A stretch of DNA of 64,000 nucleotides, taken from the NCBI RefSeq assembly GCF_006345805.1, contig NC_043000.1, positions 127,782,001-127,846,000 of the forward strand. The letters run 5' to 3'. This DNA comes from Octopus sinensis (Eukaryota). Of the stretch, positions 3,421 through 33,458 are shown piece after piece (positions within the stretch are counted from its first letter, which is position 1; the number at the start of each line of letters is the position of its first letter). Both the position numbers and the translations under genes were made by a program. Below the pieces are notes generated by a model that made no database searches, was not told where the DNA came from, and was given only the letters and a program-made list of their open reading frames with translations.

Positions 3421-3724
<304 letters not shown>

Positions 3725-3725
3725 C

Positions 3726-3793
<68 letters not shown>

Positions 3794-4189
3794 AATTGGT
3801 TGCGAACGTCACGTTTTTAAAGTATATTGGACGATGGAATATTTTGTAACTGAAAAAGCCAAACAACAAAAACGTATTATGTGTTATATGCAGCAAGAAT
3901 AACGCAGTCCTGGAGGAATATAATATACGTAAGCATTATCAAACGAAGTATTCATATCCTAATTCTCTTCAAATAGAAAAACTACGTCATGGGAGATATG
4001 AAAGTATTTTATCAGTATTTTTAACAGACGTGTTTTTTGGGTTTTTTTTAGTTAGATAACTGCTAATAAAGAAGTAACTAAAAGGCTAGTCTGAGAGTAG
4101 ATTATTTGCAAACCAAGAAAAAAGAAACCTCATTTAGTGGCGGTGAATTAATTAATTTTTTTTGTGATTACAACAGCTAAAGAAGTATC

Positions 4190-4583
4190 TTTTATCTTTT
4201 GCTTGTTTCAGTCAGTGGACTGTGGCCACGTTGGAGCATAGCTTTCAAAAATTTAAGTCGAACAAATAGACGCCAGTATTTGTTTTTGAAGTCTGGTACT
4301 TATTTTATCGGTTTACTTGACCGCACTGGTAAGTTACGAGGAGGTACGTAAACCAAACATCGTTTGTCAACCGGTGGGAAGGGACAATCATATATATATA
4401 TATATATATAATATACGATGGGCTCCCATATAGTTCCCGTCCACCAAAATATCTCACGAAAGTATCGGTTGGCCCGGGGCTATAGCAGAAGGCTACTTAC
4501 CCAAGGTCACGCACATTGAGACTGAACACAGAACCACTCGGTTACAAAGCTAGCTTCTTAACCACACAGCCTTGCCTGCACCT
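4190..4583 (-). mobile_element. SINE family B (tRNA head, CORE-like domain, internal microsatellite), diverged copy
   Basis: Homologous to the better copies at 28628-29030 and 46099-46490. Confidence 0.8.
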
Positions 4584-4689
4584 ATATGTATATTCCGTAA
4601 AAATAAATTCATTCAAAAAATTAGTCTTTCTACAACATCAGAGACTGGGGGAGTCGAAGACATAGGAAGCAATATCTTGTTCCAATTAA

Positions 4690-5960
4690 ACAACAATACG
4701 AAAGATTTCTGTTTGGTTTTCTCTGGTTCTTGATGAGTGGACAGCTGCGTCTGACAGTTCGGTGTTGCTATTGTTTGTTGAGGGAATTAATGCTGACTAC
4801 GAAGTCATGGAACAGCTATTGATGATGACATTTCATAAGAGCTGGAGAAAACATTAACTAAGTGCAACCTGGTTTAAAAACATTTAAAGTATTTTACAAG
4901 CGACGGTGGAAAAATTTTGTGTGGCGTAAAGAAAGGTTATATTGACTGAGCCTACACAACTTGTGACAGTATGAAGTGTAATGTAAAAATTAAAAAAACT
5001 CTATGGTGTTTTACTGCACCATTCATCACCAGGAACTTTGCGTAAAACATTTAAATCTATCATCTGTGACAGAACCAAGCGACAAACAGCGAATTTTATT
5101 TGATCGCGTGTGCTCAATCAATGTCAGTTTCGAACATTTTGGGAAGAAATACAAACTGAATATAGCAATTTGCTGTACTACACTATTGAATAATGGTTTA
5201 GTAACAGTAATGTTTAGTAAGCAGCTATACCACACTGCTGAAAGATTGTTTAGTAACGGTGGAGTTATCTCAGGAAGTTTTTAAAACTTCTGATGAGGAT
5301 TTTTATTTATTTTAATGAGAAAAATTGTTCTCAGGCACAAATTGCAAACGGCAAATGGTGTGGGAAAATGGCATTTCCCACTTCACGAGCTGCATTTTAG
5401 ATCACATTGCCATTCTGAGCTTATAAGCGGCATATACTCTGCTGTAGAAGCATAAAATAACATTTTACCAATCCCAGTTTATGATAAATAACTTCGGTCA
5501 CTTTTCTTGCTGTGATAAATATACGAAAGAAGCAAAATTCTTGTTTCCTTTCTAAATCACGCATCACATTTTCACTTGACAGAAGTTACAATATTAACAG
5601 AGTTTGGCAAATCTCAATAAAAATGTGAAATCATTAAAAACCTTTCAAAAGCCATTTCACTGCATTATTGAAGTGACATCCAATAGATCTTCAACCGGAA
5701 GTTATTGATTTGTTGCCAAATGATATGCTAAAAGGCAAATACATTTATAAAAGGGAAAACATTTATAAAATGACTCCCAGATAAAGGATTTACTCCTTTA
5801 AAATTTTTTGCTGTGAGTGGGCTTTTCACACAATTTATTTATGTGAAAGAACATTTTCAAGCATGAAATATATCAAATTGTGTTAACTAACTACTTGCAA
5901 TCAGTTGTGATTGAAGGAACCACGAAATTTGAACCACATTTTAATATTTTCTTATCGTTT
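4690..5960 (+). mobile_element. Decayed hAT (SPIN/GTF2IRD2/Buster-like) transposase remnant
   Basis: Fragments resembling DESTD...LLFV.GI...YEV.E.L (4731-4820), CxxH..xLC.K (ORF 5003 YCTIHHQELCVKHL) and the dimerisation motif YLCERTFSSMKYIK (5836-5880). Many stops. Confidence 0.7.
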
Positions 5961-19347: not shown

Positions 19348-19879
19348 CTGTTCTGTCTGTCTGCGTGTGTGTCTTCTCGGATCTCGGGCATCCTCCATCC
19401 GATTGCGCTCAAATTTGATATGTAGATACCGACGGTATCAGGGCGTGTATAAGTCTTGAAAAAATTACAAAAATCGATTCCAGGTGAGAATGCGATCGAT
19501 AAAGCCGTTTTTGCCCTGCTTTTCGTCTGTCAACCTGTACATAACTGCACCTTCCATTTTTTGTTGTTTTTGTACTGCTTAAAGGCACGTTTCTTTCCTG
19601 CCAAGCTTACTGTTTAAACCATATTTGTGTTCTCCCAGCCTTATTATTTCTGGTACTTTAAACTCTTCGGTTGCATATTTGTGTGAATGAAATCGTTCTT
19701 CTTTGGAATAGAAAAAAGTTTATCTTTATTTCTTCTTTTGCTGGTGTCTCAAATTTAGGTTAAATCAGTGTTTCTCAAAGGGGAGGCCTATGGGACGGTC
19801 GGACAAGTTGTTTTGAGAAAATTTAGTTTAAATGTTTGACAACTCAGCACCGTCCATTGGACGGGGGCGTTTTGCTCGT
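19341..19879 (+). mobile_element. Non-autonomous Helitron
   Basis: 5' atataaaat..tctgtctgtctg; 3' hairpin ccgtcc-att-ggacgg about 10 nt before ctcgt; no TSD; second copy at 35961-36646. Confidence 0.78.
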
Positions 19880-19887
19880 GTATATAT

Positions 19888-20281
19888 ATTATCAATAATA
19901 ATAAAGAGTAAAATTAATTAATTATTTTACCAAGTAGTTCGGTATGTTAAAAGAATCATTATCGGTAAACTTATACATAAAATTTTTATAATTATGAGTA
20001 TAATTATAATTAGGGTTCAGCAAAGATCTGCTTCACCACATACCAAAATTTAGAAATAACAGTTAAAACTAACTATTTCACTATCATGAGAAAAATCTCC
20101 CAAACAGCAATACTCAACAACCCACGTAGGGTGCGTGGGTTGTTGAGTATTGCTGTCTGGGAGATTTTTCTTATGGTAGTGAAATAGATAGTTTTAATTG
20201 CTATTTCTAAATTTCGGTATGTGGTGAAGCAAATTTTTGCTGAACTCTAATTATAATTATACTCATAATTATAAAAATTAT
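19888..20281 (-). mobile_element. Hairpin-plus-tail foldback element (150-bp arms, 3-nt loop)
   Basis: Arms 19980-20128 and 20132-20280, unique tail 19888-19979, TA runs on both sides. Confidence 0.75.
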
Positions 20282-20336
20282 ATATATATAGATAAAATTG
20301 ATCAAAATAAAATAAAAACATGATGCGAAGGATTCA

Positions 20337-20414
20337 GCGGTACATATGTTTCGGGCCTTTATTAGACAGATTTATAACAATGCATAATGTATGTCTGTGG
20401 CCTTCTTCAGCCGC
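20337..20414 (-). ncRNA. Type I minimal hammerhead ribozyme
   Basis: Exact reverse complement of 22166-22243. Confidence 0.75.
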
Positions 20415-22165
20415 GCACAACAGCTTCCACAAGGACATGTGTTACATCAAAAATTCTTGGTTGGGGATGCAAATCCTCTCATTCGCGTACGACATAATGC
20501 GGCAGCAGCATAGAATTGAAGCGTCCATCTCTTTCTTCTCTCAATGTAGAATGAGGAAAATTGGATGTTGAGGTAATGTAAATAAATAAATACATATAGG
20601 CGTGAAGATGGAGGGGCGAGAATTCGGGACGAGGGATAAAAATGTATAAAAGTTGTAAGTATAGAAAAATATAAAAATGTAGAGCATAAAGATATAAAGA
20701 GTATAAGGAGATGTAAAGGGGGTATAAAGAATATAAAGAAATATAAAGAAATATAAATAAATGTAAAGGATAAGGTTATAAAGTAAAAAATAGAAATAGA
20801 AATAAAAGTAAAAAAAACATGATAAAAACATGATAAAAATGTAAAAGAATGTAAGATAAGGGATGTATAGAGGTACGGACCAAGCATGGTGGTCAGGAGA
20901 TGATTAATTTAGTTGTAGAATTGTCAGTAAATCAATTTCGTCTGGGGACCTAATGTGTTGTAAATCAGAGCTGATGAGCATTTAATCTGGTTCCTTGAAT
21001 AAATGGACTTCTAGTACATAATATCATCATGGATACATACACCCACATACACGCGTACATATACGCCTCCAAGCCTATAAGCATACACACGCACTCGCGT
21101 GTAAACATGTACATAACACACACGCACGCGCGTACACATCATACATACAACAGAATATCCGCATGTATACACGGACACTATACGCGTACACATAGGACAC
21201 ACAGCCGTGTTGCGTGCACGTATAGACATTGAAGCGTACGTGATTTTTTAATACGTTTTTTTACATACGTTCTTATAACATCCTTTAATATCTTATATCT
21301 AGACCTAGAGGCGTGGGCATATACGTGTGTGTATGTAGGGATGGGCGCGCGTATTACATGTGAGTGTGTACGCGTATAGTGTCCGTGTATACATGCGGAT
21401 ATTCTGTTGTATGTAATGCATGTGTACGCGCGTGCGTGTGGGTGCGTGTGTGTCTATGTACAGTTTACACGCGAGTGCGTGTGTATGCTTATAGGCTTGG
21501 AGGCGTAATGTACGCGTGTATGTGGGTGTATGTATCCATGATGATATGTATGTACTAGAAGTCCATTTAATTCAAGGAACCAGATTAAATGCTCATCACT
21601 CTGATTTACAACACATTAGGTCCCCAGACGAAACTGTTGATTTACTGACAATTCTACAACTAAATTTATCAATCTCCTGACCACCATGCTTGGTCTCGTA
21701 ACCTCTTACATCCCTTATCTTTACATTCTTTTACATTTTTATCATGTTTTTATCATGTTTTTTTTTACTTTTATTTCTATTTCTATTTTTACTTTATAAC
21801 CTTATGCCTTTACATTTATTTATATTTCTTTATATTCTTTATATTCTTTATACCCCCTTTACATCTCCTTATAACTCTTTATATCTTTATGCTCTACATT
21901 TTTATATTTTTCTATACTTACACCTTTTATACATTTTTTATCCCTCGTCCCGAATTCTCGCCCCTCCATCTTCACGCCTATATTATGTATTTATTTATTT
22001 ACATTACCTCAACATCCAATTTTCCTCATTCTACATTGAGAGAAGAAAGAGATGGACGCTTCAATTCTATGCTGCTGCCGCATTATGTCGTACGCGAATG
22101 AGAGGATTTGCATCCCCAACCAAGAATTTTTGATGTAACACATGTCCTTGTGGAAGCTGTTGTGC

Positions 22166-22243
22166 GCGGCTGAAGAAGGCCACAGACATACATTATGCAT
22201 TGTTATAAATCTGTCTAATAAAGGCCCGAAACATATGTACCGC
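22166..22243 (+). ncRNA. Type I minimal hammerhead ribozyme
   Basis: gcgg-CTGAAGA-aggcc...ggccc-GAAAC-atat-GTA-ccgc. Stem I gcgg/ccgc, palindromic stem III acatatgt, predicted cut after 22239. Confidence 0.78.
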
Positions 22244-22379
22244 TGAATCCTTCGCATCATGTTTTTATTCTATTTTGATCAATTTACTCCACCACCTACA
22301 CCACCAAACGGTATACACAGGTGCTTATAATTATCAAGTACTCACCCCGAATTTCTATATATATAGATAGATAGATATA

Positions 22380-22480
22380 GATCACGTCACGTGATCACGT
22401 GACCGACCAGACCATCAGATGTAGTTACACATCGCTGGTCACAATGCGTTCGCATTGTTTTAGCCTTCGAATGACACCAT
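22380..22480 (-). mobile_element. Short LINE-derived 3'-tail repeat ending in cacgtgat units
   Basis: Shares gctggtcacaatgc with the LINE 3' remnant at about 62960-63000. Confidence 0.5.
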
Positions 22481-23394
22481 ATATATATTCTCAGGGAGAG
22501 AGGGGGAAAACTCCCCGAGAATTCTTTCTTGAATTTGGAGCAAGCTGTCGCCTGTTCCTTATTTGGAAGCCGCAAGACCATTACCAGAGATTGCCATCTC
22601 TTTTCCATTGATCTCTCTAGAACTGTAGCACAAATAGTGTACAGCTTCCTTAACAATTAGCATACTGCTGCCATGATGAGCAAATTAGTTTAAAGATGAA
22701 AATACGGTTTACATTTTTACCATGGCCACATAAATTGTCCAGCAAAGAACGAAACTTTACGCAACTGCAAAATGGCTGGGTATTTTCTGGAGCTAGTCAA
22801 AACAATTACGACATCAGCGTCTAGAACCCTCGTACACTTAGGGCAGGCACATCAATGAAATGAACTTGAAAAAGGTATCAGCGCATTTATAACTAACCAA
22901 TGTATTGGTGTTCCACTCGATTCGGTTAATGTCACCCGTTTTATAGACAAGGATTTCTTTTCGAGAATTCCCCTGTTTCGAACATTGTAGTCATGCTCTT
23001 GAATTATCCTGGAAATTTAATCTAGACAGATTGTTTCTTCATCCTTCTATACAGCAAACATCGCCTTAAGTATCTTTCCTTTATGAAAAGGTGCATAGCC
23101 TGTGCTTTCTACAACTGAAACTAACTTTCTAACTCGGGCGATCGTTAAAAAAAATTCATGTTGCTTGACTTGTTCCAGTATTGCTAACCCCTTGTATTTT
23201 CCCCCAACTCTGCAACGATCTGGAACCAGCCGATACTAAATCTTGTCAGTTCTCTCTTCTTGATGAAAGATTTATTAAGAAGGCGACTAAACGGCCTCAA
23301 GGTGATGGTACTATTAAGCCTTTGATCTCCCCAAATCGATAACTAGTGGTAATAGTAAGAAATAGTAATAGCACAAAACCAGTAAACTGCTATT

Positions 23395-25949: not shown

Positions 25950-26190
25950 AAGACTAGACGCTACATCGAAGAGGCCAGGGAACAAAAGAAGACATGCACC
26001 CAACACCAGAGCTGAAGACACCTCCGAAAGGGGGGGGGGGCACGTCAAGACGGTAGAGGAGTAGGGGCCGAAACCGGACGTGGTTTCTCCTGATGATGTC
26101 TTGCGCTAACTGTATCCTATAAAGGAGCTGTTGTGGTAGCAGACCACGAAACAAGGTTGAAATTCCTAGGATAATGTAATCTTAGACCCT
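25950..26190 (+). mobile_element. Possible LTR-retrotransposon PPT/LTR remnant
   Basis: A G-run (26030-26040) like a polypurine tract, followed by a TATA-like tataaagg. Weak. Confidence 0.3.
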
Positions 26191-32665: not shown

Positions 32666-32729
<64 letters not shown>

Positions 32730-32843
32730 TTCAAATGAATTAGGTACTTGAGTTGAAGCACCAAAATTTAGTGCGGTATTATCCATACAACTTCAAAATA
32801 AGGTAAATAAAATGAAAATAAGTGACAGGATAGTCCAGAGGTG

Positions 32844-32931
32844 ATGCAGTACGACCGTTTCAAGCAGCTCCATTTAATTGAACAAAGCGATCATTACATC
32901 AATTTAAATGCAGGGCTATCCTCAGCTGCAT
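32844..32931 (-). ncRNA. Type I minimal hammerhead ribozyme
   Basis: Minus strand: atgcag-CTGAGGA-long stem II-GAAAC-ggtc-GTA-ctgcat. Confidence 0.72.
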
Positions 32932-33039
32932 AAATAAATAGAATTTTTTTTTAATCAGGCGGACACATTAGTATAATTTTACTTAAATCCTATTAGAGGA
33001 TTTAAGTAAAATTATACAAATGTGTCTGACTGATTATTT

Positions 33040-33127
33040 ATGCAGCTGAGGATCGCCCTGCATTTAAATTGATGTAATGATTGCATTGTTCAATTAAATG
33101 GAGCTGCTTGAAACAGTCGTACTGCAT
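33040..33127 (+). ncRNA. Type I minimal hammerhead ribozyme
   Basis: atgcag-CTGAGGA-...cattta.aattga/tcaatt.aaatg...-GAAAC-agtc-GTA-ctgcat; 6-bp stem I. Confidence 0.72.
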
Positions 33128-33386
33128 CACCTCTGCACATCCTGTTGCTTATTTTATATATAACTATTATAATAAATTATTTTAATTTATTACCCTCATA
33201 TTTATGAAAGTAATATTTATAATTCAGAGGCTGTATAGAACACAGTTTTAGATTTATTTATTTACTGCTGGATTATATATTTACGCTCACGCACAAAGTT
33301 CAAATCCATAATGGATAAAAATCTATCTGTCTTGTGCACATGTTTTCAGTACATATTTACAACTACATAATTATTAATTAATTAGC

Positions 33387-33458
33387 AATCTTGCTGATGA
33401 GCTACAGATCTCAAATTAGTTTATTTGGAAATTAATGGTGAAACTCAAGTCTGGGATT
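33387..33458 (+). ncRNA. Minimal hammerhead ribozyme (separate PLE-type end)
   Basis: aatcttg-CTGATGA-gcta...tggt-GAAAC-tcaa-GTC-tgggatt; stems pair with G-U wobbles. Confidence 0.65.

Follow-up and report, generated by a model that had tools for sequence, protein, structure and literature searches.

The 2-kb hairpin at 20295–22355 of the 64,000-nucleotide Octopus sinensis stretch analysed here (the window) is very probably a single, doubly 5'-truncated insertion of a young autonomous Penelope-like element (PLE) into (TA)n sequence, with two copies of the element's 3' end set head to head. The insertion itself was likely dead on arrival; the family from which it stems is young, high-copy, autonomous and Penelope-like. 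The shape is known already: publications on PLEs describe truncated copies in inverted orientation, tails on one side only, (TA)n targets and hammerheads paired on opposite strands. As a stand-alone element the hairpin is of no weight, being retrotransposon debris with a published shape. What the family offers, its ORFs being intact, its two ends sharp and its two-armed insertions numbering in the hundreds, is counts that bear on how PLE structures form; PMC8557442 describes the way in which tandem and inverted ones arise as an open mechanistic question. It also offers a Hydra-clade enzyme for reconstitution. The features, in window positions, are as follows.

20279–20294, no strand: left (TA)n-rich target remnant
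20295–21192, minus: left arm, an inverted, 5'-truncated, tail-less copy of the PLE 3' UTR/pLTR
20337–20414, minus: type-I hammerhead motif of the left arm, identical to the right-arm motif
21189–22355, plus: forward, 5'-truncated, tailed copy of the PLE 3' UTR/pLTR
21193–21390, plus: spacer, 198 nt
21391–22285: right arm, paired part
22166–22243, plus: type-I hammerhead motif of the right arm, Hydra-clade layout
22286–22355, plus: one-sided tail, 70 nt, at the right end only
22356–22381, no strand: right (TA)n/(GATA)n target remnant

Aligned with the reverse complement of 21391–22285, the segment 20295–21192 gives 889 matches, three substitutions and 35 gap columns, with a single base difference over the outer 299 nt. 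On the 4,768-nt unit taken from locus L072, the left arm corresponds to positions ~3764–4699 and the forward copy to ~3601–4768; both arms map more than 1 kb beyond the stop codon at unit position 2591. Judged by alignment to the unit, the spacer is the surplus 5' reach of the forward copy beyond the inverted one. The head-to-head junction lies at ~21189–21192, with a BLAST overlap of 4 nt. There is no RT frame among the 20 stop-to-stop frames of at least 60 aa in 19500–23200, the longest of which has 153 aa. Short (TA)n runs border both ends of the hairpin, and no target-site duplication is discernible there. An initial annotation had described inverted arms of ~900 bp, a ~70-nt tail on one side, (TA)n on both flanks, an identical hammerhead near each outer end on opposite strands, and the lack of an RT ORF, all of which hold. 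It also rightly saw a spacer, but put its length at ~170 bp. Its proposal of a PLE origin is borne out, since both arms are the 3' UTR/pLTR of an autonomous PLE with an 836-aa ORF. Adjoining the left TA run is a separate 317-bp hairpin (19972–20288; 155-bp arms, 92% alike), a high-copy repeat according to public contigs; the PLE insertion probably went into its TA end.

The wider family is large. With the right end of the insertion as query, the 2.72-Gb genome yielded 1,845 candidates, of which the 40 best are 99–100% identical, and the exact hammerhead pattern matched 1,203 times, its reversed control not once. Further copies are therefore abundant, and the autonomous partner sharing the tail is found too: its unit measures 4.77 kb, and its 836-aa ORF is intact (3/3 loci listed; 71 matches in a protein search). 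Thirty-nine other top loci, selected by their tail, were retrieved with ~8.5 kb of upstream sequence; ~85 loci were examined in all, every one from the top of identity-ranked searches. By eye, 24 of the 39 have an inverted arm within ~8.5 kb, and 17 extend into the family ORF; one more locus of the set matched just a distant family. Among the first 100 hammerhead places listed, a count by eye gave 24 minus-then-plus pairs within 5 kb (48 of the 100 motifs in head-to-head pairs) and no plus-then-minus pair within that distance.

Two-armed insertions span 408–7,651 bp, the longer ones with ORF in their arms. Locus L033 has the same design as the window copy at 7.1 kb, with 3,258-bp arms that are 98.9% alike and ORF in both. 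The full layout is seen in L072: an inverted tail-less arm, a partial tandem, the ORF, a 3' UTR of ~2.2 kb and the tail, with a unit period of 4,768 nt. Partial tandems occur in L072 and L074; in tandem copies the tail continues into the leader, and the ATG lies 81 nt past the tail end. Direct tandem units are spaced by 5,334 bp in L074/L075 and by 4.37 kb in L088, which would allow two hammerheads in sense orientation to form a dimer. Other loci are more elaborate: L021, L024, L030 and L054 contain nested or repeated inversions, with three or four segments per insertion, or adjacent foldbacks, and L024, L036, L050 and L077 contain, within a few kb of the copies, fragments of another, distant PLE-like ORF (28–54% identity). 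The family probably has no name so far. It may be in Repbase or elsewhere under another one; in the openly accessible literature no paper was found on this family or counting tail pairing.

The 836-aa ORF carries YRDD, and its predicted structure (pLDDT 79.6) finds its best fold match in telomerase TERT (3du5, E 3.7e-9). Neither the ORF nor its alignment matched an RT in sequence searches of Pfam and PDB; the RT is identified by motifs and fold search. At the C-terminus, VIY...YIG, R, E and N align with homologs as a GIY-YIG endonuclease; Pfam recognises this domain in 5 of 24 aligned proteins and not in the 836-aa ORF itself. Among 8,000 proteins scored, 1,374 homologs reach E 1e-20 or better, and the named ones come from the molluscs Solemya velum and Argonauta hians, at 31–39% identity. 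The alignment shows DKT in place of DKG, a CxCx5C linker, and CxxC and CxH around E and N, while CCHH is absent from it; PMC8557442 gives precisely these as marks of the Hydra clade. By such motifs, taken from the text of that paper, the family fits the Hydra clade. Membership of Neptune or Nematis was set aside, as the linker and endonuclease motifs agree with the Hydra description.

In common with the EN+ PLEs of the Hydra clade (Craig et al. 2021, PMC8557442), the family has a C-terminal endonuclease, (TA)n targets and the hammerhead layout. It departs from the description given there in several respects. Its unit of 4.77 kb, with a 3' UTR of ~2.2 kb, lies outside the clade's general length of <3 kb, which is a tendency and no definition. 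The N-terminal motif is RWA, as opposed to the RWK of the clade and of most aligned homologs; the tail has 70 nt against the usual 30–40; and loop 2 of the hammerhead has 41 nt against 3–10 nt in the listed Hydra motifs. The motif listed for Hydra-1_Obim differs from that of the family, marking it, by motif comparison, as a different family. The ORF additionally holds two low-complexity inserts rich in N, Q, T and R (L064:796-3303, at ~residues 487–549 and 629–692, pLDDT <50), which are missing from most homologs and recall the asparagine-rich inserts of rotifer PLEs (PMC3846280).

How the two-armed structure arose is best approached through its ends. Copies of the family terminate at one of two sharp 3' ends, separated by 70 nt. 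Both kinds of end adjoin TA repeats, which follow 131 of 132 ends. In 45 loci picked by ORF or hammerhead, without regard to tail, there are 24 head-to-head pairs: 20 unite a tailed with a tail-less end, four have an unclassified end, and like-with-like pairs do not occur. For 20 out of 20 classifiable pairs the chance is about one in a million, assuming even odds and independent ends and loci. Breakpoints vary among loci, and a repeated junction is seen only inside one locus. Of 43 junctions, 18 have a tail-less arm that extends further 5' than its partner and 14 a tailed arm that does so; in six the two are near-equal, and five are unclassified. BLAST overlaps of at least 2 nt occur at 22 of 49 junctions, against 27% in a null that was measured differently; an exact-match version was spoiled by sequence errors.

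Formation by two cDNAs is the reading we moderately favour. The RT-endonuclease would nick both strands of the TA target, and one cDNA would start at each of two fixed sites; both would stop early, their ends then being joined head to head, and the size of the inverted repeat would be set by the two truncation points. The invariable pairing of tail with tail-less end, with either arm the longer, favours two cDNAs from two fixed sites. Where the tail-less arm is longer, plain copying of one arm from the other cannot have produced the pair, and this speaks for two cDNAs templated by RNA. There is precedent in a lizard PLE, reported to start reverse transcription at two sites that delimit the tail, to nick both strands in vitro and, by prediction, to act through a dimer; its cleavage needed protein and was dispensable for insertion in vitro (PMC11167929). 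This element, PAc Poseidon of Anolis (Frangieh et al. 2024, PMC11167929), shares with the octopus family the two fixed ends bounding a tail, AT-rich targets and a hammerhead near the 3' end; it belongs to a different clade, and its hammerhead and RT start sites overlap the ORF start, whereas both ends of the octopus family lie upstream of the ATG.

Twin priming of the L1 type inverts adjacent parts of one RNA. It was set aside here, where both arms contain an identical 3' end.

A bolder statement, tentative and in our view somewhat less likely true than false, is that a single protein dimer makes a nick in each strand of the TA tract and that two cDNAs invariably set out from there, one from each of two different fixed sites separated by 70 nt, to be joined head to head; about half of the 1,203 hammerheads would thereby be left in self-silencing kilobase hairpins that seed hundreds of double-stranded RNA substrates. 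If true, the double-stranded RNA of such hairpins would be a substrate for editing or small-RNA silencing, and a young Hydra-clade family would be a record of PLE integration whose intact 836-aa ORFs allow in vitro tests.

The main competitor, rather unlikely as a general explanation yet to be taken seriously, keeps the same element and has its cDNA or antisense RNA fold back and prime its own copying, the palindrome being trimmed later by a central deletion and an endonuclease cut at one end. Self-priming has been proposed for inverted pLTRs with an optional tail (PMC3846280), and the arms do resemble each other: in 20 of 30 pairs no sequence is closer to an arm than its partner, and in all 30 the partner is closer than the median (0.56% vs 2.6%). 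Such likeness also fits two copies of one source transcript, or gene conversion. The six near-symmetric junctions among 43 exceed the permutation mean of 1.5 (p 0.002), and snap-back or self-priming thus acts in at least some insertions. Against it as the rule are the 18 junctions with the tail-less arm further 5', where plain copying would need a later deletion; asymmetric deletion of a symmetric palindrome would, in turn, mimic two independent truncations.

Two cDNAs or one, the hairpin is a remnant of the autonomous family, and this conflicts with the initial annotation, which saw a non-coding, PLE-dependent element. A distinct non-autonomous foldback or inverted retrozyme, in which a 2-kb unit is copied by a PLE in trans, is largely refuted and very improbable. 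It would account for a window copy that is non-coding and has both family ends and intact motifs, and proteins of PLEs are able to act in trans and mobilise what lies between pLTRs (PMC3846280). Yet the window junction has a single match in 2.72 Gb (as an exact pattern, which diverged siblings could escape), breakpoints differ by locus, and arms of sibling copies, up to 3.26 kb long, extend into the ORF in the 17 of 39 loci noted above. The hairpin also has inverted arms and no tandem unit, whereas non-LTR retrozymes are defined by tandem direct repeats with a hammerhead per unit (bioRxiv 10.64898/2026.07.22.740005). The window insertion does share its whole architecture with the general PLE insertion unit, which in the family includes partial tandems (PMC8557442; PMC3846280); it differs in that both of its copies end inside the 3' UTR, so that no ORF is left.

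That the second arm is an assembly artefact made by a long-read palindrome is hardly credible: the inner 600 nt of the arms do show a long-read error pattern (35 gap columns vs two substitutions), and DNA contigs of four public runs contain the family without any of them spanning the hairpin locus, but the two flanks are not mirror images of one another, as a simple read palindrome would have them, the tail is one-sided, the same tail rule is obeyed at dozens of loci whose flanks are unrelated, and the window contains an older family that has the same pattern with 6.6% arm divergence. Contigs from the four runs also provide letters that are absent from both arms, so the gaps between the arms are likely local base errors.

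The hammerhead motif opens with stem I (GCGG/CCGC), followed by CUGAAGA and one unpaired base; stem II (GGCC/GGCC) encloses the 41-nt loop and is followed by GAAA and the palindromic ACAUAUGU. The predicted cut falls after A22239, in agreement with the site proposed in the initial annotation. A strict type-I descriptor finds four matches in the window, against 0.03 per window in 100 Markov simulations, whereas Rfam, whose models are escaped by minimal motifs with a long loop 2, matches no hammerhead either in the whole window or in the motif alone. Folding computations give a three-stem form for the isolated 78-nt motif (−11.8 kcal/mol) and a helix-III dimer for two motif copies (−35.4 kcal/mol). 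With flanks included, other folds outcompete the hammerhead form, and the fold of 22160–22250 is not unusually stable (z-score 0.97). The motif is of type I, with a stem I that is short, a stem II preceded by an unpaired base, a palindrome in helix III and an occurrence in opposite-strand pairs, and in all this it resembles the minimal PLE hammerheads of Cervera and de la Pena (2014, PMC4209133) and those of non-LTR retrozymes. Dual motifs 100–700 bp apart on opposite strands are described in the former work, and PMC8557442, which reports for PLEs an adjacent inverted 5'-truncated copy, a tail at one end only and (TA)n targets, lists Penelope-13_HM as having such a copy and a hammerhead on either strand. 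Inverted hammerhead pairs are accordingly not the surprise they had seemed.

In full copies the hammerhead sits in the pLTR, sense to the ORF, which is also the orientation of the right-arm motif. It lies only 43 nt inside the nearer 3' end, which explains why it is present in both arms here and kept by most arms elsewhere. Across 95 copies in 57 of 59 loci, substitutions amount to 0.4% in core and stems, 1.0% in loop 2 and 2.5% in the flanks. The lower core variation is a weak sign that the hammerhead may be conserved, weak because the copies are young and related. Arm starts show no enrichment at the predicted cut site: in a sample of eight short arms, biased to copies that keep the motif, one starts within 3 nt of it.

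Where full elements are transcribed in tandem, the hammerhead is predicted to cut as a dimer. A hairpin transcript would contain only one motif in the sense orientation, and the arm duplex, computed at −558 kcal/mol for the outer 300 nt of the arms, would likely suppress the predicted cleavage; as the initial annotation suggested, the duplex might also be a substrate for ADAR or Dicer. Its remark that transcription reading through the insertion would produce the antisense arm before the sense ribozyme is geometrically correct, and it is valid for all two-armed copies.

Hammerhead-like features occur elsewhere in the window. An older foldback of the same design lies at 32728–33160, with motifs at 32925 (minus) and 33046 (plus); one arm is ~85 nt longer, the flanks are TA or AG, the stems differ and loop 2 is long. 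It has 4,215 candidates in the genome, with two arms in most of the 14 loci viewed. A lone, decayed hammerhead-like motif at 33390–33455 (plus) passes the strict descriptor. Two successive CUGA-N-GA...GAAAC motifs at 26000–26170, which fail that descriptor, possibly mark another element end.
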